This document shows positions 16,826 to 32,291 of a stretch of DNA of 64,000 bases, in pieces. Under the pieces are notes generated by a model. It was not told the origin of the DNA and did not search any database. It was given only the letters and a program-made list of their open reading frames with translations. The first letter of the stretch is position 1. Every line of letters starts with the position of its first letter. The stretch comes from Oscillospiraceae bacterium (GTDB lineage: Bacteria; Bacillota; Clostridia; Oscillospirales; CAG-272), in contig SVSX01000002.1 of assembly GCA_015064085.1 (NCBI GenBank), positions 9,282-73,281 of the forward strand. Direction: 5' to 3'. The position numbers were made by a program, and so were the translations under genes.

Positions 16826-17113
16826 ATGGAAAGATTAAGCACTTGTGATCTGAGGGAAAAAGAGGTCGTCAACGTCTGCGACGGCGCAAGGCTCGGTTGT
16901 CCCTCGGATTTTGAATTCTGCGCCTCGGACGGAAGAATAACTGCGCTTGTAGTCCCGCGGGGAGGGGGAATATTCGGGTTTCGTAGGGAGGACGATATCA
17001 TAATCCCTTGGTGCAAAATAGAATGTATAGGCTCGGATACCATAATCGTCAAGCTCTCGCCGGAGGAATACCGAGTGCCGTGCAAGGATAAAAAGAAAAA
17101 AAGCTTCTGGTGA
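16826..17113 (+). CDS. YlmC/YmxH family sporulation protein (PRC barrel)
   Basis: DLREKEVVNVCDGARLG...IPWCKIECIGSDTIIV; GGAGG RBS. Confidence 0.92.
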   Translation: MERLSTCDLREKEVVNVCDGARLGCPSDFEFCASDGRITALVVPRGGGIFGFRREDDIIIPWCKIECIGSDTIIVKLSPEEYRVPCKDKKKKSFW

Positions 17114-21309: not shown

Positions 21310-21711
21310 ATGAATAACAAAAGAAACACTTTGCAAAAACAGATCGTGTATGAGACCTTTGAGGCAATGCACAATCACCCCTCGGCAGGAATGGTTTACG
21401 AGGCTGTAAATGCCAAGTTCCCGGGGATAAGCAAAGCGACCGTCTACCGTTTACTTTCGGAAGCAGCAGAGGAGGGGAAGATACTCAGACTGAAGCTTGG
21501 AGGTTCAGCAGACGACAGATATGATATCACACTGAAAAAGCATTATCATATCGTGTGCAGAGAATGCGGCGCTGTGGCTGACGTTGAGGTTGACTTCGAC
21601 GACGAGCATCTTTCGGCAAACACGGTTGGAATGGAGGGCTTTAGCGTAGAGTCCTGTAACTTGGAATTTTGCGGTCTGTGTGCAGACTGCTTGAAAAATC
21701 AAAAAAATTAA
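21310..21711 (+). CDS. Fur-family repressor, probably PerR
   Basis: HPSA, ISKATVYR, HYHIVCRECG, CADC; upstream of rubrerythrin. Confidence 0.88.
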   Translation: MNNKRNTLQKQIVYETFEAMHNHPSAGMVYEAVNAKFPGISKATVYRLLSEAAEEGKILRLKLGGSADDRYDITLKKHYHIVCRECGAVADVEVDFDDEHLSANTVGMEGFSVESCNLEFCGLCADCLKNQKN

Positions 21712-21740: not shown

Positions 21741-22289
21741 ATGAAAAAATGGAGATGTAAGATTTGCGGAGAGATCGTTGAAGGAGATGCAGCACCCGAA
21801 AAGTGCCCCCTTTGCAAAGCTCCCGCTGAAAAGTTCGAAGAGGTAGTTGAGGATAAGATGACATGGGCTGCAGAGCACGTTGTAGGCGTTGCTAAGGGCG
21901 CACCCGAGGAGATCATTGAGGGCCTTCGCGCAAACTTCAACGGCGAGTGCATGGAGGTAGGTATGTACCTCGCAATGTCCAGAGTTGCGGCAAGAGAGGG
22001 CTATCCTGAGATCGCTCTTTATTGGAAGGAAGCAGCACTTGAGGAGGCAGAGCACGCAGCAAAGTTTGCTGAGCTTCTCGGAGAGGTAGTATGCGACTCC
22101 ACAAAGGAGAACCTCGCAGTAAGAGTTGCGGCTGAGAACGGCGCAACAGCAGGTAAGTTTGAGCTTGCAAAGCTTGCAAAGCAGCTGAATCTTGATGCTA
22201 TCCACGACACAGTTCACGAGATGGCAAGAGACGAAGCTCGTCACGGCAAGGCATTCCAGGGTCTTCTCGAGAGATATTTCGCTAAGTAA
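21741..22289 (+). CDS. rbr: Reverse rubrerythrin / NADH peroxidase
   Basis: N-terminal rubredoxin-like CKIC..CPLC; diiron motifs EEAEHA and DEARH. Confidence 0.93.
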
Positions 22290-22356
22290 TTAAAAACCAA
22301 TAAACATAAGGCTTAAAACACCGAAGAGCGACCGCAAGGTCGCTCTTCTTTTATGC
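22131..22356 (+). repeat. Rubrerythrin 3' end plus terminator, copy 1 (intact gene)
   Basis: Aligns to 23817-24043; 22131-22240 is identical to 23817-23926. Confidence 0.95.
22323..22352 (+). terminator. Intrinsic terminator of rbr
   Basis: GAAGAGCGACC-GCAA-GGTCGCTCTTC-TTTT. Confidence 0.9.
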
Positions 22357-22484
22357 ACGGTTTGCAATAGCTTTTGTGATTTCTAATTGAAATTTTTTAA
22401 TTTGTGCCAAATTTGTTATAGACAGAAGGATATCTTTGAGTTATAATATATTTATAAAATTTGTGTGTTGAAAGGAAAGGTATT

Positions 22485-23507
22485 ATGTCACGAATCAATA
22501 TCAACATCGACGGACTTATTGAAAAAGCAGAGCAGACAGTTGCATCTCATAAGTTGGGAAAAGGAGACTATGCACGTTGGCTTTGGCAAAACGAAAAAAA
22601 TGACCGTGTGCTTGGCTCTAATCCATACGGTGTAGCCGATGCCGCTAATACCCTTTACATGATAGGCGATTTCCCACAGGATGATGAAGAGCGCGCTGAA
22701 TTTGTTCGTATTCTGAGGGAGTTCCAAGATCCCGAAACAGGCCTTTTTCATGAAGATACACACCATACTTATCACACAACAGCCCACTGTACTGCGGCAC
22801 TTGAACTTTTTGATAAGTTTCCCACATATCCTTTCACCGCGCTTAAAAAGCTTGATGACATAAACGAGCTTTACGAGTTTCTTGACGGTCTTGATTGGTT
22901 GGATACTCCATGGCCTACATCCCATAAGGGTGCGGGTGTTTTCGCAGCAAAGGTGATTGTTGAAAGACCTTCTGTTGAGTGGCAGAAGGCGTATTTTGAT
23001 TATCTTGACAGTCATTGTGACAAAAAGTACGGAATGAGCAGAGAGGGTATGATAGAAGCACTTCCCGAGGACAAAAGACATATAGATCACCATCTTAACG
23101 GATGGTTCCATTATTGCTTTAATTACAATCATTGCAAACGTCAATTCCCGTGTATCGAAACCTTTATAGATACGCTTATTGATATGTACGTAAATCAAAA
23201 GCTTCCCAAAAAAGTCTTTGGCAGATCGGTTGGATTCCGTGAGATAGATTGGGTATTCCCGTTAAATCGCGCCACATGGCAGGTTGGATATCGCAGAGAA
23301 GACGCAAAAGAGGCTATGCGCGATTTTGCGACAAAATATATCGAATATCTCGAATCTGTTGATATTAATAATGATGACCGCTGGAACGATCTTCACTCGC
23401 TTTTTGGTTGTGTGTGCTGCCTTTCAGAGCTTCAGCTTGCGCTTCCGGGTGAAATAATCTCCACAAAGCCGCTTAAAAACGTACTTGACAGAAGACCGTT
23501 TATTTAA
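22485..23507 (+). CDS. Hypothetical protein, possibly alpha/alpha-barrel (prenyltransferase-repeat-like QDPETGLF)
   Basis: 340-aa ORF with AAGG RBS; His-rich HHTYHTTAH segment; no confident family. Confidence 0.7.
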   Translation: MSRININIDGLIEKAEQTVASHKLGKGDYARWLWQNEKNDRVLGSNPYGVADAANTLYMIGDFPQDDEERAEFVRILREFQDPETGLFHEDTHHTYHTTAHCTAALELFDKFPTYPFTALKKLDDINELYEFLDGLDWLDTPWPTSHKGAGVFAAKVIVERPSVEWQKAYFDYLDSHCDKKYGMSREGMIEALPEDKRHIDHHLNGWFHYCFNYNHCKRQFPCIETFIDTLIDMYVNQKLPKKVFGRSVGFREIDWVFPLNRATWQVGYRREDAKEAMRDFATKYIEYLESVDINNDDRWNDLHSLFGCVCCLSELQLALPGEIISTKPLKNVLDRRPFI

Positions 23508-23570
23508 ATTGGATTACATCGAGAGCCCTCATTTGATGTCTCCTTCGAAAATCTTTCGTTTTATTTCTTA

Positions 23571-23599
23571 TTGACAGGGCTTTTTGAAAATAATATACT
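23571..23599 (+). promoter_or_regulatory. sigmaA promoter of truncated gene
   Basis: TTGACA-17 bp-TATACT. Confidence 0.7.
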
Positions 23600-23623
23600 G
23601 AAAAAATGAAAGGAGAGAAAGAT

Positions 23624-23821
23624 ATGAGTTCATTTGGATTCAATATTTTTGATTTCGGTGCTAAGGGTGACGGTATTACCGACGATACCGCCGCAATTCA
23701 GGCGGCAATAGATTTCGTGGCAGAGCGAGGAGGGGGCAAAATACTCTTTCCGTATACCAAAGGGGGATATCGTATTGCATCTCCCGCAATTGAAGAGGTA
23801 GACGGAAAGCCCGTTCGCTGA
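23624..23821 (+). pseudogene. Truncated pectate-lyase-superfamily / GH28-related beta-helix protein (N-terminus only)
   Basis: NIFDFGAKGDGITDDTAAIQAAID...GGGKILFP signature; ends at junction with rbr duplicate. Confidence 0.85.
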
Positions 23822-24043
23822 GAACGGCGCAACAGCAGGTAAGTTTGAGCTTGCAAAGCTTGCAAAGCAGCTGAATCTTGATGCTATCCACGACACAGTT
23901 CACGAGATGGCAAGAGACGAAGCTCGCCACGGCAAGGCATTCCAGGGTCTTCTTGAAAGATACTTTGGCTAATACTTAAAAGTCAATAAATATAAGGCTT
24001 TAGACACACAAAGAGCGACCAAAAGGTCGCTCTTCTTTTATGC
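23817..24043 (+). repeat. Rubrerythrin 3' end plus terminator, copy 2 (orphan fragment AENGA...LLERYFG*)
   Basis: 110 nt identical to copy 1, then synonymous differences; stop 23970-23972; terminator AAGAGCGACC-AAAA-GGTCGCTCTT at 24011-24034. Confidence 0.95.
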
Positions 24044-24068
24044 TTATATAGGCACAATGCTTAATTAG

Positions 24069-26438
24069 TTAGCTATTCATAGGGCTCTCGGTAAGATCTA
24101 ATTCCTCACCGTCCTCTGTGACTGTTTTTATGGCGTTGTGTGGAACGTTGATTGAAAGCTCCTTTCCAAAAAGCATTATTTGGGTGTTATGCTCTATGCC
24201 GTCAATGTCGAAGCAGCGAATAACGCTCTTGTCGGTTTCCTCTGAGTTCTTTATAGCTGAGACTATCAGTGTGTCGTCGTCGCATTCGTAACATCCCATC
24301 CTTTCGGGAAGAGAGCCGTGATGGAAGCTTGCCATAATGATCCTTGGCGCAAAATTAAGCTCAATAGCTTTTTTCTCTGTATCGGAAATGCTTCTGTGAG
24401 CAAATACCGAATAAGCAAATTCGGATACGCCTTGATCCATATATTCGCATTTGTTGTCTCTGTCACCGTAATGATCGGCATATACCGCGCCGCGAAGAAC
24501 GGTCAATCTCATTTCATTTGACTCGGTGTCATAGCCGTATTTCGAATCGTTTGCGACAGCTAATTTTCCGCTGATAATGAAGCTTCCGCAGGGTTCTTCT
24601 CCTGAATATGCCGTTCTTTCTACTGTGCCGTATGGAATCTTTGCTCTGACGCTGTTTTTACTCATAGGAAAGGTAAATTTGAGGGTTCTGTGCTTTTCGT
24701 GAAAATCTATTTTTGCTTTAACGTACACTCTGTCGTCATCCGCAAGTAGAGAAAAGTCTCTCGTTACGGTGGAAGTATTGAATGTAACTGTGGATCTGAG
24801 TGTTACTCTCACAGGTCCTTCCTCGATGATCTCAAATATCGGGTTTCCAAAGCACCCCACAGTATCCCCAAGACTTGTCTTGTCGTGAGCCCATGTGTCG
24901 CAATCGCTCTCGTCAAGCAATATCGCACTGCAGGGGCGATCGATCACATATTCTCCAACCTCCTTGTCAAAAAGCTTGCATATGTCACCTGTATTTGAAT
25001 CGAACTCAACGCAAAGTCTGCTGTTTTCAAGTCTTTGATTTGATATCGACATAGAAGAGCAGACCGTCAGCTTGCTTTCTTGTTTTGTGAATATTCTGTA
25101 GGTTGTATATCCGAGAGGAGGAATCTCTGCAATAAATGAGGTGTTATATATATCTCCGTTATGTCTTGTCTGCTCAGCTCTGGTGAGCTGGAAGGGGATC
25201 TCTTTTTCGTCAAATCCCGTTACTTTGCTTGCACGCTCGTTAACGCTGACACACGCATGCAGCTTCCAAGTGTGAGGATTGAATATAACAACCGGTATTC
25301 CCAAGCTCTCACTTTCCCATGTCTTTTTGTTTTTTATCATAGGTGACGGTAGCTCATTATCTCCAAGTGTGTCGATATCAAGCACGATCTTCTGCATAGC
25401 AAAATACATCTCTTGCTCGGTTATGCTCATCGTTTCGCCAAAGAGATAAGAGGCATCATTATATGCGCTCTTGATGGAACAGCCTCCGAGTATATCGTGG
25501 AACTGATTGAAAAGAAGATTTTTCCAAGCCTTGTTGAGCTTCTTTTTGGGATATTTGTAATCGGTCAGCTTGCTTGACATTGTGCAGAGCTTTTCTGCGG
25601 CAAGCAGATTTTGCTCACATCTTCGGTTTTCCTTTTTTATGTAGCTCAAAGCACTGTAGCAGCCTCTTGCGTGATGCTGAAGCTCACCCGAGATAGTGGG
25701 GAGATCCTTTTTGTTGAGATTATCAAAAAACTCATCGGGAGTAGCAAAGATACCGTCCGGTATATTTTCCTTGATTTCATTAATCAGTGCTATAGTAGGT
25801 CCGCCGCCGTGATTGCCGACTCCGTAAAAAAGCATGGAATCGTGCATCAGGCTATCCACGCATTTCTTTGCCTCGGTCAATACTTCCATTGTCGGACAGC
25901 CATAGCTTATCGGTATCCTGTAAGCTGTTACGGCACTTCCGTCGTCGCTTTCCCAATTAAAAAGGTATTCGTCGCGGTTCTGCTCGTTTGGTGAAGGACG
26001 CATAAAAACATAGCTGTTCATACCGCTTGCTTTCATTATTTTGGGGATAGAAGCATTGTGGCCGAAGGAATCCACGTTGTAGCCTGTTTTTGCTGTTATT
26101 CCGAATTTTTCCTTAAAATATCTCTGAGCAATAAGGCTATGTCTTGCAAGGCTTTCTCCACTTGGAATATTGCAATCGGGCTGAAGAAACCATCCGCCCG
26201 TTATACACCATCTTCCTTCTTTGACTCTCGTTTGTATTTCCGCGAACATATCGGGATCAAGCTTTTCAACGATCTGATAATAGGAAGCGCAGGCGCTTGT
26301 GTACTTGAAATCGGGGAATTCCTTCATTCTGTCAAGCGCGCTCCTATATGTGGCGAATATTTCGGAGAATCCTTCCTGCCATCTCCATAACCAAACGGGG
26401 TCAATGTGTGAGTTGCCTATCAAGTATAATTTGCTCAT
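24069..26438 (-). CDS. Alpha-mannosidase, GH38
   Basis: SHIDPVWLW, GESLAR, VDSFGH, YGVGNHGGGPT, NQFHDILGG. Confidence 0.92.
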   Translation of the reverse strand: MSKLYLIGNSHIDPVWLWRWQEGFSEIFATYRSALDRMKEFPDFKYTSACASYYQIVEKLDPDMFAEIQTRVKEGRWCITGGWFLQPDCNIPSGESLARHSLIAQRYFKEKFGITAKTGYNVDSFGHNASIPKIMKASGMNSYVFMRPSPNEQNRDEYLFNWESDDGSAVTAYRIPISYGCPTMEVLTEAKKCVDSLMHDSMLFYGVGNHGGGPTIALINEIKENIPDGIFATPDEFFDNLNKKDLPTISGELQHHARGCYSALSYIKKENRRCEQNLLAAEKLCTMSSKLTDYKYPKKKLNKAWKNLLFNQFHDILGGCSIKSAYNDASYLFGETMSITEQEMYFAMQKIVLDIDTLGDNELPSPMIKNKKTWESESLGIPVVIFNPHTWKLHACVSVNERASKVTGFDEKEIPFQLTRAEQTRHNGDIYNTSFIAEIPPLGYTTYRIFTKQESKLTVCSSMSISNQRLENSRLCVEFDSNTGDICKLFDKEVGEYVIDRPCSAILLDESDCDTWAHDKTSLGDTVGCFGNPIFEIIEEGPVRVTLRSTVTFNTSTVTRDFSLLADDDRVYVKAKIDFHEKHRTLKFTFPMSKNSVRAKIPYGTVERTAYSGEEPCGSFIISGKLAVANDSKYGYDTESNEMRLTVLRGAVYADHYGDRDNKCEYMDQGVSEFAYSVFAHRSISDTEKKAIELNFAPRIIMASFHHGSLPERMGCYECDDDTLIVSAIKNSEETDKSVIRCFDIDGIEHNTQIMLFGKELSINVPHNAIKTVTEDGEELDLTESPMNS

Positions 26439-26570
26439 ATCACTTCTCCTTGAATTAATAATGATTTTGACTACCCATTATTTTATACCTCAAAGAAAAT
26501 ATGTACAATGGAAAATCTTTTTATGTATATTGCTTTTCTTTGGTTTATTTGATATAATATATAAAAAGGG

Positions 26571-27374
26571 GTGAGATTCTTGCGGATATTTAAAAACAAA
26601 GACTATATAAAAAACGATATTATAAGCGCCTCCCAAAAGAGAGTTGTAAAGGACTGCAAGCATCACGGTCACGAATTCTTTGAAATTGAATATATAATTG
26701 AGGGGTCGGGAATATATGAAATAGATGGCAGGGAATACCGAATAGCTCCAAGCACACTGTTTTTCACAAAGCCAACAAATGTTCATGCCATTAGACACCC
26801 AAACGCGTCGATAATAAATGTTATGTTTACATACGATCTCAAAAATGACATTGTAGATATCAGCGACTTTCTTTTAAATCAGACACCTTGTTTTCATTTG
26901 GATGATAAGACAAATGATTTCTTCAGAGTAATTTTTTCTGAGATAGTGAGGGTGAATGAGAAGGAGGCGGAATACGCGATGACGCTTTTGAAGTGCGTGC
27001 TTTACCGATTGTCTGAGAGTAATGGCAAAGCAAACGTTTTTACACAGGCATCATCCTATGTGCGAAAGGCGGTAGTGTTTATTCACGAGAACTTTGCCTC
27101 GGATATCGGTCTTGGGGTAACGGCAAAGCACGTAGGACTTACGCCGTCATATTTTTCTGACCTATTTCATAAGGAACTTGGAGTTACGTTCAAGTCATAT
27201 CTTGACGAGATCAGGTTTTCATATGTGAGAAAGTTGCTTAAATATACAGATCTTTCGATAAAGGAGATACACTTTCGAGCAGGATTCTTTGATTATACTA
27301 ATTTCGAAAGGCGATTCAGAAAGCGGTATGGGATCACCCCCACCGCATACCGCGTAAAAGAAAACAACAAATGA
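26571..27374 (+). CDS. AraC-family regulator (cupin plus HTH), divergent from GH38
   Basis: HHGHEFFEIEY; YFSDLF...GFFDYTNFERRFRK..G.TP. Confidence 0.9.
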   Translation: MRFLRIFKNKDYIKNDIISASQKRVVKDCKHHGHEFFEIEYIIEGSGIYEIDGREYRIAPSTLFFTKPTNVHAIRHPNASIINVMFTYDLKNDIVDISDFLLNQTPCFHLDDKTNDFFRVIFSEIVRVNEKEAEYAMTLLKCVLYRLSESNGKANVFTQASSYVRKAVVFIHENFASDIGLGVTAKHVGLTPSYFSDLFHKELGVTFKSYLDEIRFSYVRKLLKYTDLSIKEIHFRAGFFDYTNFERRFRKRYGITPTAYRVKENNK

Positions 27375-27383
27375 AAACCAACA

Positions 27384-27425
27384 GGCAGAGCATTCGCGGC
27401 TCTTCTTGAGAGATACTTTGGCTAA
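27384..27425 (+). repeat. Rubrerythrin 3' end, copy 3 (GRAFAALLERYFG*)
   Basis: 36/42 nt identical to 23931-23972, in frame and with the same stop. Confidence 0.85.
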
Positions 27426-27480
27426 GAAAATCCTCACTATGGCGATTTGAAAAAATATTGTGAATAATTATCGCATTACA

Positions 27481-27509
27481 TTGAAAGAGCATCATTCCTA
27501 TGATACAAT
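27481..27509 (+). promoter_or_regulatory. sigmaA promoter inside putative cassette
   Basis: TTGAAA-17 bp-TACAAT with extended TG. Confidence 0.65.
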
Positions 27510-27585
27510 TAATACAATACTCGGTGAAAAGTGTTTGTGTAAACAGTCAGATCAACTATGAATTTATTTAACGGAGGTTTTAAAA

Positions 27586-27927
27586 ATGACAAAATTTCAA
27601 GAAAAATTGATTGCGGACGGCTATTGTGACGATCGCGGTGCAGGTTTCTGCGCAACTGCCACTAAACTGCCCAAAGGTGAATACGGTATTGTGGCTCTCT
27701 GTGTAAACGGAAATAAACTAAATCTGTTTGGTGTAGATATGAAAAGTAACATTGGCAAATTGTTGTATGTGGTGAATCTGAAGCAAATTGAAAATTTGAA
27801 GATTCGTACAGGACTCTTAAGCCAGGTATTGAAATTTGATTATGACGGTTATACCTATTCTTTTACAAATTTTGTTGGTGTAAAGCCCGCCTTAAATGTG
27901 ATTAAAGAAGAGGCCGGTAAACGATAA
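27586..27927 (+). CDS. Hypothetical protein (possibly PH-like fold), AT-rich
   Basis: 113-aa ORF with GGAGG RBS; stop lies within TAAATTCCGATTT. Confidence 0.75.
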   Translation: MTKFQEKLIADGYCDDRGAGFCATATKLPKGEYGIVALCVNGNKLNLFGVDMKSNIGKLLYVVNLKQIENLKIRTGLLSQVLKFDYDGYTYSFTNFVGVKPALNVIKEEAGKR

Positions 27928-27945
27928 ATTCCGATTTACCGGAAC

Positions 27946-27983
27946 AAAATAAGAGCAGGACTTGCGGGTCCTGCTCTTATTTT
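27946..27983. terminator. Bidirectional intrinsic terminator
   Basis: AAAATAAGAGCAGGAC-6 nt-GTCCTGCTCTTATTTT between convergent genes. Confidence 0.88.
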
Positions 27984-28013: not shown

Positions 28014-28361
28014 TCAGGCGTAAACTATGAGAGCGATAAGATCGACAGGCTCACTTCCGTTATTCGCGACAGAGTGTCCGTTTCCCGAGGAGACTACAGC
28101 CGTGTCTCCAACGCACAGAGGATATTCTTTGCCGTTGTCATTATAGGTCGCCTCACCTCTTACAACGTAAAAGAGCTCACTTTCGTTCTCGTGAACGTGG
28201 TATCCTATCGATGCTCCGGGTTCAAGATGGATATTTCCGAAGAGTCTTCCTTTTTCGTTGAGCTCGGCGGAGGAGACGAACTCGGTCACGTAAACAGTAC
28301 CGTTCCCACCCTTCATATTCTTTCTTGCGTCTGCCTTGCATTCACTTGCTTTGATTATCAT
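28014..28361 (-). CDS. Cupin domain protein
   Basis: NMKGGNG, LEPGASIGYHVHENESE, GNGHSVAN. Confidence 0.9.
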   Translation of the reverse strand: MIIKASECKADARKNMKGGNGTVYVTEFVSSAELNEKGRLFGNIHLEPGASIGYHVHENESELFYVVRGEATYNDNGKEYPLCVGDTAVVSSGNGHSVANNGSEPVDLIALIVYA

Positions 28362-29475: not shown

Positions 29476-30702
29476 ATGAAAAAAGTATTGAAGCTTTATA
29501 CCGATACCCCCTTGATCCTGCGTATCGCGATCGGGCTTGTAATAGGTATATGCCTCGGAATTTTCCTGCCTAAAGCGACCTTTGTTGAAATTTTTGGCAA
29601 CGTATTTGTGGGCGCACTCAAGGCTATCGCACCAATTCTGGTGTTTATTCTTGTTATCGCGTCACTCTCAAGCGCGGGTAAGGGAATAGGTAAGCGATTC
29701 GGAACTGTCATCTTCTTTTATATTCTGACTACCTTTCTCGCGGCTGCTTGTGCTGTTCTCGCATCGTTTATCTTTAAGGTGAAAGTGCCGCTAACGATCG
29801 CTCCCGAGCTTAACTCCGCTCCCACGGGACTTGGCGAGGTCTTTAGCGCTTTGCTTGGGAATATGGTCGCAAACCCTATTTCGGCTATAATTAACGGCAA
29901 CTATATCGGAATTCTCACCTGGGCAGTCATTCTTGGTCTCGCGCTCCGTCAGATAGCGTCGGACGGTACAAAGGAGATGCTTACGAATCTTTCCGACGCC
30001 GTTTCACGTGTGGTCGGTTGGGTAATTCAGCTTGCCCCGTTCGGCATTATGGGATTGGTATTTTCATCTGTCAGTGAGTACGGCTTGAATATCTTCCTTG
30101 ATTACGGAAAGCTTCTGCTTGTTCTTGTGGGATGTATGCTTTTTGTGGCGCTTGTTATCGACCCTTTGGTCGTTGGCATATCCCTTCGCCGCAACCCCTA
30201 TCCGCTTGTATTCAGATGCTTCCGCGAGTCGGGGATCACCGCCTTTTTCACAAGAAGCTCGGCGGCAAATATACCTGTCAATATGAGCCTGTGCGGCAAG
30301 CTCGGGCTTGACAAGGAGTATTATTCGGTAGCTATTCCTCTCGGCGCTACCATAAATATGGACGGCGCGGCGACCACCATTACGGTGCTTTCGCTTTCGG
30401 CGGGATTCTCTCAGGGAATCGAGATAAACATATTACTTGCGATCCTTCTTTCCTTTGTTGCTACTCTCGGAGCGTGCGGCGCATCGGGCGTTGCGGGCGG
30501 ATCGCTCCTGCTCATTCCTATGGCGTGTTCGCTTCTCGGGGTATCTTCCGACGTGGCGATGCAGATGGTGGGTATCGGATTTATTATCGGCGTTGTTCAG
30601 GATTCTCTTGAAACGGCGATCAATTCCTCAGGCGACGTGCTTTTCTGCGCGACCGCCGAATACCGTGAAAGACTGAAGCGCGGTGAGGAGATACCTAAAT
30701 AA
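29476..30702 (+). CDS. sstT: Serine/threonine transporter SstT
   Basis: FVGALKAIAP, FFTRSSAANIPVN, PLGATINM, CGASGVAGGSLLLIP, QDSLETAINSS. Confidence 0.93.
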   Translation: MKKVLKLYTDTPLILRIAIGLVIGICLGIFLPKATFVEIFGNVFVGALKAIAPILVFILVIASLSSAGKGIGKRFGTVIFFYILTTFLAAACAVLASFIFKVKVPLTIAPELNSAPTGLGEVFSALLGNMVANPISAIINGNYIGILTWAVILGLALRQIASDGTKEMLTNLSDAVSRVVGWVIQLAPFGIMGLVFSSVSEYGLNIFLDYGKLLLVLVGCMLFVALVIDPLVVGISLRRNPYPLVFRCFRESGITAFFTRSSAANIPVNMSLCGKLGLDKEYYSVAIPLGATINMDGAATTITVLSLSAGFSQGIEINILLAILLSFVATLGACGASGVAGGSLLLIPMACSLLGVSSDVAMQMVGIGFIIGVVQDSLETAINSSGDVLFCATAEYRERLKRGEEIPK

Positions 30703-30737
30703 TTTAATATATATTAATATAATTAACCACAAAAATG

Positions 30738-30841
30738 GGGGCTGTCACAAATGTGAATTTGTGACAGCCCCTTTTAGGGGATAAATGGGATCTTTTTATT
30801 TATTTTCGGACTTTTTCGGTCTTGCCAAATGTGACAGCCCC
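30738..30841. repeat. 15-bp perfect inverted repeat with a third half-site; terminator and/or IS-end relic
   Basis: GGGGCTGTCACAAAT-GTGA-ATTTGTGACAGCCCC (30738-30771) and TGTGACAGCCCC again at 30830-30841. Confidence 0.8.
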
Positions 30842-30851
30842 GCGGTCTTTT

Positions 30852-32291
30852 TTAATGTTTTCTCCAGGCAAAGGGAGAGAAGAGTATCAGCATAGGAATG
30901 ATCTCAAGTCGACCTACAAGCATTGTCAAAGAAAGGACGATTTTTGAAAACGCCGAGAAATCGGCAAAATTGCCCACAGGACCGACAGCTCCAAGTCCCG
31001 GACCTACGTTGCTTATACAGGTCAGTACCGCCGTGAAGGTGGTTTCAAAGTCGAATCCGTCTACCGATATAAGCAGTGCGCTTCCGATAAGTACAGTGAC
31101 GTGGAGGGCGAAATGGCTTGTGGCGTTTCTCACCGTCTCGTCGGGAATCGCCTCTCCGTCGAGCTTTACCACGTTTATCGAGCGAGGACGCAGAATGTGC
31201 TTGATCTCTCTTCCCATAGTTTTCATTAGAATGATCACGCGCGAGATCTTGAGTCCGCCCGCGGTCGATCCCGCACAAGCACCTATCAGGGTGAGGACCA
31301 GCAGCAGCATCTTTGAAAATGTGGGCCACAGATCGTAGTTCAGTGTTACAAATCCCGTTGTAGAGATGATAGACGTGACCTGGAAGAAGGCTGTTCGAAT
31401 GCAGCTTTCGAGTCCCGAGAAGCTCTTCGCGATATTAATGGCTATAAGCAGAGTTGCTGTAAGACAGATCGCAAGATAGCACCTGAGCTCCTCGCTTTTG
31501 AAGGCCTCCTTGAATTTTTTTATTAGAATAAAGAAATATATGTTGAAGTTTATACCGAAGATCATCATAAATATTGCGATGACCCATTCGGCGGCGGGGT
31601 TATTATATCCCGCGATAGAGTCGTTAAGCACCGAAAAACCGCCCGTTCCCGCAGTGGCGAAAGAGGTTACAAGGGCGTCGTAGAGTGGAAGTCCGCAGAG
31701 GCAGAGGGCAATTACCTGAATCGTAGTAAGAACAAAGTATATGCCATAGAGTATAAGGGCGGTCTGCTTCATTTTCGGAACGAGCTTACCCTTTTGCGGT
31801 CCGGGTACTTCGGCTCGCATAAGGTAGTTGGTCTCTCCGCCCGCAGAGGGGAGGATCGCGAGAATAAATACCAGAACACCCATACCGCCTATCCAGTGAG
31901 TAAAGCTTCGCCAGAAGAGAATACCTTTTGGAAGTGACTCTATCTCTCTGAGTATAGTCGAGCCTGTGGTGGTAAATCCCGACACCGTTTCAAAAAGGGC
32001 GTCAATAAAATTCGGTATAGCTCCGCTGATAACGAAGGGAAGCGCACCGAATAGCGAGAGGAGTATCCAGCCTGCCGCAACGGTAACGAAGCCCTCTTTC
32101 GTGTAAAACTTAATATTTTTTGGCTTGATGCATACAAAGGGGATCGATATCGCGAATAGTAGGACAGCCGTTATCAGAAACGGCGTGATGCTTTCGCTGT
32201 ATATGAGTGACACACCCATAGGTAGAAGCAGGAGGACACCCTCTATAAGCAGGAAGACACTGAGAAGATATCGTATCATTTTGAAGTTCAT
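30852..32291 (-). CDS. trkH: TrkH potassium uptake permease
   Basis: FETVSGFTTTG, WIGGMG, GTGGF, STTGF, GSTAGGLK, NVGPG, GRLE. Confidence 0.95.
   Translation of the reverse strand: MNFKMIRYLLSVFLLIEGVLLLLPMGVSLIYSESITPFLITAVLLFAISIPFVCIKPKNIKFYTKEGFVTVAAGWILLSLFGALPFVISGAIPNFIDALFETVSGFTTTGSTILREIESLPKGILFWRSFTHWIGGMGVLVFILAILPSAGGETNYLMRAEVPGPQKGKLVPKMKQTALILYGIYFVLTTIQVIALCLCGLPLYDALVTSFATAGTGGFSVLNDSIAGYNNPAAEWVIAIFMMIFGINFNIYFFILIKKFKEAFKSEELRCYLAICLTATLLIAINIAKSFSGLESCIRTAFFQVTSIISTTGFVTLNYDLWPTFSKMLLLVLTLIGACAGSTAGGLKISRVIILMKTMGREIKHILRPRSINVVKLDGEAIPDETVRNATSHFALHVTVLIGSALLISVDGFDFETTFTAVLTCISNVGPGLGAVGPVGNFADFSAFSKIVLSLTMLVGRLEIIPMLILFSPFAWRKH

Follow-up and report, generated by a model that had tools for sequence, protein, structure and literature searches.

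The 3' end of the rubrerythrin gene (rbr) occurs three times in the same orientation in the window, a 64,000-nucleotide stretch of contig SVSX01000002.1 from an Oscillospiraceae metagenome-assembled genome (89 contigs, 82% complete, 2.7% contaminated). This raises the question of how the end of a gene comes to be stacked downstream of itself with other genes in between. The original prediction described the locus as a recombinase-free hotspot, in which incoming DNA of relatives enters by recombination with rbr while its other end is joined illegitimately. Its second option was an att site within rbr that is acted on in trans.

The rbr tails and the genes between them

The features of the locus are presented in Table 1. 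Two cargo segments are bounded by three plus-strand rbr tails, that is, by same-orientation direct repeats of the gene end. The three predicted tails were recovered: 22131-22356 recurs at 23817-24043, and a third piece of 42 nt lies at 27384-27425. Pfam matches upheld the calls for PerR/Fur, rubrerythrin, the 71-aa pectate-lyase-like piece, GH38, AraC and the cupin. The perR-rbr pair is kept at 70-79% nucleotide identity in most of the genus, and intact rbr homologues were identified in 37 loci of relatives. For the 113-aa ORF, nucleotide comparison gave no match in the rest of the genus. The tail with its terminator is confined to these places in the 2.02-Mb genome, so the rbr tail is not a dispersed repeat.

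Table 1. Features of the rbr locus, in positions of the window
Feature	Position	Strand	Evidence
perR, Fur-family regulator, upstream partner of rbr	21310..21711	+	Pfam FUR, 77 bits
rbr, intact rubrerythrin gene, target gene	21741..22289	+	Pfam RUBY_RBDX, residues 4-33 (N-terminal, rubredoxin-like); Rubrerythrin, residues 62-117
Copy 1 (attL-like): last 159 nt of rbr itself, spacer and terminator	22131..22356	+	
rbr codons 163-182, part duplicated at integrase-linked tails of relatives; putative attB core and distal part	22227..22289	+	
Cargo 1: 348-aa protein, no known family	22461..23507	+	no Pfam match
Cargo 1: truncated pectate-lyase-like gene, N-terminal 71 aa only	23606..23821	+	Pfam Pect-lyase_RHGA_epim, residues 12-62
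Putative illegitimate junction, pectate-lyase-like gene / rbr nt 391 (23816/23817)	23812..23822	+	
Copy 2: displaced rbr tail (codons 131-181), spacer and terminator	23817..24043	+	
Cargo 2: GH38 alpha-mannosidase-family gene	24069..26438	-	Pfam Glyco_hydro_38N, Alpha-mann_mid, Glyco_hydro_38C
Cargo 2: AraC-family regulator, divergent partner of GH38	26571..27374	+	Pfam HTH_18, HTH_AraC, AraC_binding
Copy 3: putatively oldest displaced rbr tail (codons ~168-181 and stop), native allele, without type-A terminator	27381..27429	+	
113-aa ORF, no known family, followed by a terminator-like hairpin; right flank of the array	27586..27927	+	no Pfam match
Cupin gene, convergent right flank	28014..28361	-	Pfam Cupin_2

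Copies 1 and 2 share 92% identity (22131-22321 against 23817-24007), and their terminators (22324-22356 and 24011-24043) share 94%, with an unchanged stem and the loop GCAA in one and AAAA in the other. The first 110 nt are identical, the first mismatch falls at 22241 (rbr nt 501), and divergence beyond it is about 10%, which uniform divergence would not give. All five differences in codons 167-180 are synonymous (CGT/CGC, CTC/CTT, GAG/GAA, TAT/TAC, TTC/TTT). The translation of copy 2 is 100% identical to Rbr residues 131-180, and the two copies end in FAK and FG, respectively, before the stop codon. Because the changes in these codons are synonymous only, the tails are best described, as had been predicted, as ends of different functional alleles and not as decayed local duplicates.

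All three copies contain a member of the 42-nt family (22245-22286, 23931-23972 and 27384-27425); the copy 3 member shares 86% identity with that of copy 2 and 81% with that of copy 1. Copy 3 translates as GRAFAALLERYFG followed by a stop codon, and its Arg/Ala signature was found only in the three nearest relatives (3/38 intact alleles). The last 49 nt of the present rbr coding sequence resemble another clade than nt 1-500. Copies 1 and 3 thus differ in clade likeness, with a native-clade allele in copy 3 and a current tail like that of another clade. This agrees with the predicted succession of acquisitions, in which the oldest tail would lie outermost. Among the loci examined in other genomes, no tail was more than about 89% identical to those of the window.

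Integrase-linked tails in relatives

Stand-alone rbr tails were observed downstream of the gene, on the same contig, at 6 of 38 loci with an intact rbr (37 relatives and the window), and three further contigs carry 2-3 tails each. Such tails are present in other species of the genus too. Variable cargo with tail copies at its boundaries, which the original prediction had named as its test, was seen in these relatives. Genomes G021 and G034 encode full-length tyrosine integrases (418 and 406 aa; Phage_integrase scores of 61 and 65 bits) at distances of about 73 and 131 nt from a tail, respectively, and truncated integrase copies adjoin tails in G060 and G007. One attR layout, consisting of the integrase start, TTGGAA repeats, a degenerate rbr-like stretch and the tail, is common to nine loci from eight species. 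The repeats occur beside tails and after the rbr terminator, and from their placement they may be integrase-binding arm sites.

A public genome collection yielded 25 integrase loci, 22 of them evaluable. At 17 of the 22, and at all 11 with a full-length integrase, the opposite strand carries an rbr tail no more than 300 nt from the integrase start; one of the 11 integrases is 100% identical to the query. The adjacency persists for integrases just 34-36% identical to the query. On three single contigs, whole elements were found in which intact rbr is followed by cargo, integrase and tail, with sizes of about 10.4 kb (L100), 4 kb (L109, with a Mob_Pre relaxase) and 8.9 kb (L110). The cargo of L100, a GH63-like hydrolase, a GH3 and an AraC-fused protein, is of the same type as that of the window. 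Arrays of five (L115), four to five (L106) and three tails (L122) were also found.

The integrase-linked tails all start at the codon-163 motif CGCGACGA. Unique tail junctions are a minority, represented by long tails in G036 and G056 (rbr residues ~122 and ~129) and by copy 2 of the window. Breakpoints in the anchor gene mostly fall at one site, as most tails of relatives start at codon 163 beside the integrase. Linkage, whole elements, constant boundary and arrays are direct observations in the relatives. The adjacency, the whole elements and the fixed start therefore mark the rbr 3' end as attB and the stacked tails as tandem accretion scars, an already known kind of structure. The recombinase-free cause does not hold, since tails of relatives adjoin full-length integrases and represent attR of a tyrosine-integrase element with its boundary at codon 163. 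For the same reasons, the option of an att site served in trans came closer to the truth.

Origin of the array in the window

We consider it probable that the three stacked tails of the window are att scars of integrase-borne elements that entered the end of rbr, the integrase having been lost here. From codon 163 onward, the final ~60 nt of rbr would serve as a chromosomal att site for small integrative elements of ruminant-gut Clostridia, each encoding a tyrosine integrase and some of them mobilizable. In their attP, TTGGAA-type arm-like repeats would flank a duplicate rbr end, complete with stop codon, spacer and terminator. Integration would supply a new 3' end, so that rbr stays intact, and the former end would be displaced across the element to lie beside the integrase gene. 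With repeated integration at the intact gene, older tails would be stacked downstream by age; once integrase and arms are lost, cargo without an integrase would remain between tails, as it does in cis-mobilizable elements (CIMEs). The window would accordingly represent a decayed two-step array, with copy 3 as the native tail, copy 2 as the tail brought by a first element (cargo GH38-AraC) and copy 1 as that of a second (the 348-aa and pectate-lyase-like genes). Catalysis by the rbr-linked integrase, the order of events and this origin of the window's tails are what we infer from the sequences.

Two boundaries in the window fall within ~15 nt of the att boundary of relatives at nt 487, namely the start of copy 3 (about nt 493-502) and the point from which copies 1 and 2 diverge (nt 501). 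Leftward, copy 2 extends to rbr nt 391, 96 nt beyond every att-bounded tail, and over this extra length it does not differ from the host gene. Such an extension is not produced by site-specific recombination on its own, and a second, illegitimate event is therefore assumed, in which the pectate-lyase-like gene would have been joined to rbr nt 391 at a microhomology and the element backbone removed. At 23816/23817, pectate-lyase-like sequence (..GTTCG) meets rbr sequence (..GTTGCGG), giving a GTT(G)CG microhomology, and pectate-lyase-like homologues in G047 and G058 (87% amino acid identity over the 71 residues) continue beyond the break. Only cargo 1 combines such a join with a homologous switch at or before nt 500. 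Of the mechanism first proposed, the illegitimate join at the far end of cargo 1, which is the left junction of copy 2, was borne out, whereas the recombinase-free driver was not.

As predicted, no Phage_integrase or Resolvase match was found on the contig of the window, and TTGGAA-N6-TTGGAA had 0 matches in the window at ≤1 mismatch. The genome, itself 82% complete, yielded no homologue of the rbr-linked integrase, and the array is therefore probably a fossil. It retains the core repeats but lacks those of the arms, and is therefore probably beyond mobilisation. Public sequencing runs were examined as assembled contigs at ~3-5x depth; no excision product or empty attB was seen in them, nor any cargo-skipping joint among the 15 listed of 32 joints. 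Relatives of the 348-aa protein (76-77% amino acid identity) are located beside a Fur-like gene in two other genomes, at loci with no rbr or integrase match. Among 50 loci with GH38 relatives elsewhere, none had rbr or integrase and 10 had an AraC relative (>35% identity), in 9 cases close to GH38. Neither set of loci contained a donor element with the cargo of the window.

A different origin, which we regard as unlikely, is that DNA of relatives recombined by RecA within rbr and joined illegitimately at the far end, duplicating part of the anchor without any site-specific recombinase; the integrase-linked tails of relatives would then be something separate at the same gene. A crossover near nt 500 and a join at nt 391 in one event would give exactly the 110-nt identity followed by divergence, and the microhomology join inside the truncated gene, the unique junctions of G036 and G056, and the lack of integrase and arm repeats in the window also agree with it. 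The same model has been proposed for T6SS effector-immunity arrays (PMC5361080). Genes for ComEC and DprA are present, which is weak evidence because both are near-universal. Unaided illegitimate recombination does not predict tails at one fixed codon beside an integrase, nor a divergence boundary and a copy 3 start that both fall so close to the att boundary. Moreover, studies of 2002-2003 reportedly found that homology-facilitated illegitimate recombination deletes recipient DNA instead of duplicating it, a duplication needing two sister chromosomes. The process is also several orders of magnitude rarer than homologous recombination, according to PMC5361080.

Purely local origin, by tandem duplication in one genome followed by divergence, deletion and partial gene conversion with no DNA import, appears improbable. 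The junction of rbr nt 391 with pectate-lyase-like nt 213 is exactly what a tandem duplication would leave, and the 110-nt identity could be a conversion tract. However, a non-coding copy would not keep the synonymous-only pattern seen after nt 501, and each allele matches intact alleles of other species. In addition, the cargo after copy 2 is unrelated to that after copy 1, and copy 3 has a different, native-clade allele.

It is highly improbable that the assembly used the shared 110-nt repeat to connect rbr ends from different strains: although the genome is fragmented and partly contaminated, contigs break inside rbr in several relatives, and short contigs would be compatible with rbr carrying the right half of copy 2 plus a separate 1.69-kb circle, equivalent arrays occur on long single contigs of many other genomes and each unique junction is bridged in at least one public run. 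Records 11 of X2 and 19 of X5 span 23816/23817, record 28 of X6 spans 24043/24044, copy 3 is covered by record 7 of X1 and record 15 of X2, and 22356/22357 is spanned by record 2 of X1 alone; X1 may be the source sample.

Under the preferred origin from integrase-borne elements, a further possibility, speculative and rather unlikely, is that att scars act as portable homology after integrase loss, with RecA exchange and occasional illegitimate joins such as 23816/23817 changing carbohydrate-utilisation cassettes. A site-specific hotspot would thus turn into a self-sustaining recombinase-free one, and cassettes behind rbr would keep being added, duplicated and deleted.

Relation to known systems and implications

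Islands and prophages at the 3' ends of tRNA and tmRNA genes supply a replacement end, leave the displaced partial copy as attR and allow serial occupancy of one site. The rbr elements likewise bring a replacement 3' end and leave a partial copy as attR, but their target is a protein-coding oxidative-stress gene, of which ~60 nt of coding sequence and the terminator are duplicated. Rubrerythrin is strongly conserved, with 70-88% amino acid identity across a whole family.

In PMC5704250, integrative elements and CIMEs are described as accreting in tandem at target-gene 3' ends, with ICESt1/CIME at fda in Streptococcus thermophilus and streptococcal IMEs as examples; its reference list includes Pavlovic et al. 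2004. As described there, an integrase-borne element enters a protein-coding gene at its 3' end and restores the gene, gene-end direct repeats flank the element, and decay to integrase-less forms with reintegration gives ordered arrays, as at rbr. Unlike these systems, the rbr elements have uncultured ruminant-gut Clostridia as hosts and glycoside hydrolases with AraC regulators as cargo. Set against the definition of a CIME, the window has lost integration and transfer genes and kept core repeats, and arm repeats are absent; unlike a CIME with complete attL and attR, it probably is a fossil that has lost its arms and had one junction reworked by illegitimate recombination.

Orphan 3' ends and immunity-gene arrays of T6SS, Rhs and CDI systems are explained by homology-facilitated illegitimate recombination in PMC5361080. 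They share with rbr a constant 5' gene part and displaced 3' ends stacked downstream by order of acquisition, and their far ends join illegitimately, as in the window, with no recombinase proposed. Their displaced ends are variable toxin domains under selection with immunity genes, whereas the rbr tail is a conserved housekeeping one, its cargo is unrelated, and relatives have a dedicated integrase and a fixed boundary.

In the literature searched, no description of the rubrerythrin 3' end as an attachment site was found, and neither this target nor its integrase family was found among those described. The absence of an integrase from one window is not evidence of a recombinase-free mechanism. 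The analysis identifies the rubrerythrin 3' end as the attachment site of a family of tyrosine-integrase elements, and the integrase and attB pair could become an integration tool for anaerobic Firmicutes. Uncultured ruminant-gut Clostridia would exchange glycoside-hydrolase and AraC cassettes by means of this family, and an ordered record of acquisitions would be kept at a single locus. This would explain a hypervariable region beside a core gene in many genomes and, likewise, the stray "rbr fragments" of their annotations.

Rubrerythrin ends in the window

A repeat search and a three-way alignment bore out the repeats noted in the original prediction: the end of the rubrerythrin gene (rbr) recurs together with its terminator as a second tail (copy 2), and a third piece of 42 nt (copy 3) lies further downstream (positions in the table). 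No further occurrence of tail and terminator was found in the whole 2.02-Mb genome. As had been described, base-by-base comparison of the intact gene end (copy 1) with copy 2 revealed identity over 110 nt from the start, with the first mismatch at rbr nt 501. All five mismatches in codons 167–180 are synonymous, the gene ends read FAK-stop and FG-stop, respectively, and the terminator is altered in its loop alone, with the stem unchanged. Residues 131–180 of Rbr are 100% identical to the translation of copy 2. The genes of this region encode PerR, a rubrerythrin whose N-terminal domain is rubredoxin-like, a 348-aa protein without a known family, a pectate-lyase-like protein represented by its first 71 residues, GH38, an AraC regulator, a 113-aa ORF and a cupin. 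No Rfam match exceeded the gathering score, either at the tails or in the non-coding module that is conserved. The idea that conservation is higher in spacer and terminator than in the gene body was dropped (median 79% versus 85%, 21 pairs).

Features of the window and of related loci
Feature	Location	Position or size	Remarks
perR	window	21310–21711	upstream of rbr
rbr, intact	window	21741–22289 (+)	
Copy 1	window	22131–22356	rbr end and terminator
Copy 2	window	23817–24043	tail and terminator
Copy 3	window	27384–27425	42 nt
Hairpin-forming repeat	window	30735–30850	between a transporter gene ending at 30702 and gene 30852–32291 (-)
Adjacent direct copies	window (contig C62, 51520–55415)	42239–46134	about 1.65 kb, 74% identical
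Whole element	L100	about 10.4 kb	
Whole element	L109	about 4 kb	Mob_Pre relaxase encoded
Whole element	L110	about 8.9 kb	
Recombinase and 131–134-aa protein	L100	13718–14419 and 13068–13463	
Recombinase and 131–134-aa protein	L071	8842–9648 and 9888–10292	
Relatives of the 348-aa protein	L124; L125	3470–4906; 9189–10752	76–77% aa, each followed by a Fur-family regulator gene
PerR-Rbr remnant	L070 (G056, contig C6)	12595–13142	
Paired full-length rbr genes	G271, contig C156	98–1255	
Paired full-length rbr genes	G164, contig C2	15388–17211	
Paired full-length rbr genes	G102, contig C42	24824–26695	

Variable cargo and tyrosine integrases beside rbr tails

A DNA search of 72 genus genomes, with up to 20 kb around rbr fetched in 40 places, showed perR-rbr kept at 70–79% identity, along with many extra tail matches. 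Stand-alone tails were observed downstream on the same contig in 6 of 38 intact-rbr loci (37 relatives and the window), namely in the window, G007, G013, G022, G031 and G036, while three further contigs (G056, G060 and G020) carried two to three tails each. The gene content after rbr varies by species: about ten species have a conserved operon whose first two genes resemble mraZ and rsmH, judged by the first residues alone, and others carry glycoside hydrolases, AraC regulators or other genes. Since this content differs by species with tails at its boundaries, the test put forward in the original prediction came out positive. Shared cargo between the window and G007 was rejected, as the AraC protein preceding copy 3 has only 23% identity to the one preceding the tail of G007. 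Positions 17000–45000 of the window were compared with L042, L048, L052, L054, L064 and other loci: about ten species carry a conserved gene (cluster 5) just upstream of perR; the window has its cluster-5 homologue some 20 kb downstream of rbr and lacks the mraZ/rsmH-like operon, which places perR-rbr in a rearranged context.

The hotspot had been proposed to be recombinase-free, and a Phage_integrase search of five tail-bearing relatives, which found none on the tail contigs, seemed to back this. The reading was overturned by a truncated integrase: an ORF just left of one G060 tail resembles a tyrosine integrase N-terminus, and a genus search with it recovered full-length integrase genes in G021 and G034, each directly adjoining an rbr tail and exceeding the Phage_integrase cut-off (61 and 65 bits). 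An integrase fragment adjoins the tail in G007, and the five relatives searched contain integrase remnants only. Alignment of ten tail loci revealed one common layout in nine, from eight species, in the order integrase start codon, TTGGAA-type repeats, a degenerate rbr-like stretch and a well-preserved tail beginning at the codon-163 motif CGCGACGA. TGGAA-type repeats also follow the rbr terminator in eight loci. Judged from sequence, this arrangement is as expected for an attL/attR pair bordered by arm sites on each side, the TTGGAA-type repeats representing putative arm sites.

Using the G021 integrase, a locus search of the wider collection returned 25 loci; their record titles name MAGs of sheep, yak, water buffalo, water deer and other gut samples, and their labels include Clostridia, Eubacteriales, Acutalibacteraceae and Oscillospiraceae. 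Among the loci with at least 150 nt of upstream sequence, which were searched with Rbr, 17 of 22 carried an rbr tail on the opposite strand, no more than 300 nt upstream of the integrase start. All full-length integrases with upstream sequence (11 of 11, one 100% identical to the query) had the tail, and the five loci lacking it hold integrase fragments only, of at most 144 residues. The adjacency extends to integrases only 34–36% identical to the query, and the tail begins at the same codon in all these loci. On three contigs, whole elements were identified in which intact rbr is followed by cargo, integrase and tail; besides a resolvase and small unknown genes, L100 encompasses a GH63-like hydrolase, an AraC-fused BNR protein and GH3. 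Tail arrays comprised five (L115), four to five (L106), three (L122) and two (L100) tails. Together, linkage, whole elements and arrays are, on comparative grounds, the signature of putative site-specific integration into a gene 3' end with tandem accretion.

Origin of the array in the window

The window matches these elements in gene end and orientation, and complete elements carry the same type of cargo. The point at which copies 1 and 2 diverge (nt 501) and the start of copy 3 (about nt 493–502) both lie no more than about 15 nt from the att boundary (nt 487). We consider it probable that an integrase made the window's accretion array, which has since decayed and undergone one illegitimate rearrangement. 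Neither integrase nor resolvase is present on the window's contig, in agreement with the original observation of no integrase, no rbr-linked integrase homologue was found in its genome, and no arm repeats were detected in the window. Copy 2 runs to rbr nt 391 and does not differ from the host gene along that part; this extent and the missing integrase and arms do not fit a purely site-specific history. Its left edge abuts the pectate-lyase-like gene, cut at residue 71, where homologues in G047 and G058 (87% aa identity over 71 residues) continue past the break. Because these homologues are uninterrupted and only GTT(G)CG microhomology is shared with rbr at the join, the 23816/23817 junction is illegitimate. 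The predicted illegitimate far-end join stands for this junction, whereas a recombinase-free cause of the hotspot is not supported in view of the integrase-linked tails of relatives. Under a two-step route, the pectate-lyase-like gene and rbr nt 391 would first have undergone an unequal illegitimate exchange, after which the element would have been excised from the duplicated copy.

The mechanism first proposed, homology-facilitated illegitimate recombination, is doubtful as the maker of the window's tails. A single event of this kind, combining a homologous crossover near nt 500 with an illegitimate join at nt 391 and duplication, explains copy 2 as well as the two-step route does, and other unique junctions in G036 and G056 indicate illegitimate reworking of these arrays. 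The genome encodes ComEC and DprA, which are too widespread to weigh. Copy 3 (GRAFAALLERYFG before the stop) has Arg and Ala codons shared by only 3 of 38 intact alleles, those of the species nearest the window by perR-rbr identity, while the present rbr gene resembles near relatives over nt 1–500 and another clade over its last 49 nt. This combination suggests that the outermost tail would be native and that the inner tails came with imported DNA, as accretion predicts; a history of purely local duplication appears quite improbable.

All genomes compared are MAGs (89 contigs and 82% completeness for the window's), and contigs of several relatives break inside rbr. Parts of the stretch occur in 24 public sequencing runs from animal gut or faeces, and the junctions were checked in assembled contigs from four of these, with the organism at about 3–5x depth and the pieces short. 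The 23816/23817 junction, for which bridging had been proposed as a check, is spanned in X2 by record 11, a variant in which 13 letters differ, and in X5 by record 19. Record 28 of X6 spans 24043/24044, and copy 3 is covered together with its two flanks in X1 (record 7) and X2 (record 15). Bridging of 22356/22357 was observed in X1 only (record 2), possibly the source sample. Among the joints listed for these contigs, neither an excision product nor a joint skipping the cargo was seen; in assembled contigs such an absence, like stretches lacking cover, carries no weight for or against. Although the short contigs are compatible with another resolution of the 110-nt repeat, in which rbr joins the right half of copy 2 and a 1.69-kb circle is left, equivalent arrays on long single contigs in other genomes make an assembly artefact unlikely, and we give it hardly any credence as the origin of the stacked tails.

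Cargo relatives, other repeats and known systems

In the search for donors of the window cargo, rbr and integrase were absent from the flanks of two loci related to the 348-aa protein and of 50 GH38-related loci. The closest relatives of the 348-aa protein precede Fur-family regulator genes and the window's own copy lies behind perR-rbr; a functional link to metal or oxidative-stress regulation is possible. A small serine recombinase (Resolvase domain) was identified near tails in G060 and G056, with remnants in G035, G066 and G020. It was rejected as the agent, given five near-full-length matches (one broken by stop codons) without an adjoining rbr tail and its occurrence as a backbone gene inside the complete element L100. 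This recombinase (233–268 aa) travels with a divergent 131–134-aa protein of no family in rbr-targeting elements, and copies of the recombinase are also present in five species at loci lacking rbr tails.

In a family-wide rbr protein search, the best 150 of 949 matches were all full-length genes; among the matches listed, three genomes of other genera of the family carry two full-length rbr genes about 0.1–1.3 kb apart. At L070, the last 36 PerR residues are fused directly to Rbr residues 129–181 and followed by a small BFD-like gene, as after rbr in other species; this is a second perR-rbr copy gutted by internal deletion. The hairpin-forming repeat of the window (about 60–90 nt, 82 BLAST matches in its own genome, no Rfam match) looks REP- or MITE-like, recurs at 88–98% identity on many contigs of other genus species and is sometimes tandem with a period of about 220 nt. 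The two adjacent direct copies further downstream look like tandem paralogous genes.

A recombinase-less look-alike, orphan 3' ends at T6SS and Rhs loci, is described in PMC5361080. An abstract-level literature search, with subscription journals mostly outside its coverage, returned no paper on rubrerythrin as an integration site. As reviewed for IMEs and CIMEs (PMC5704250), these elements integrate site-specifically in gene 3' ends with tandem accretion, and the rbr elements resemble such arrays in both respects. Their kind is already known: integrative elements that occupy the 3' ends of genes, together with CIMEs and accretion.
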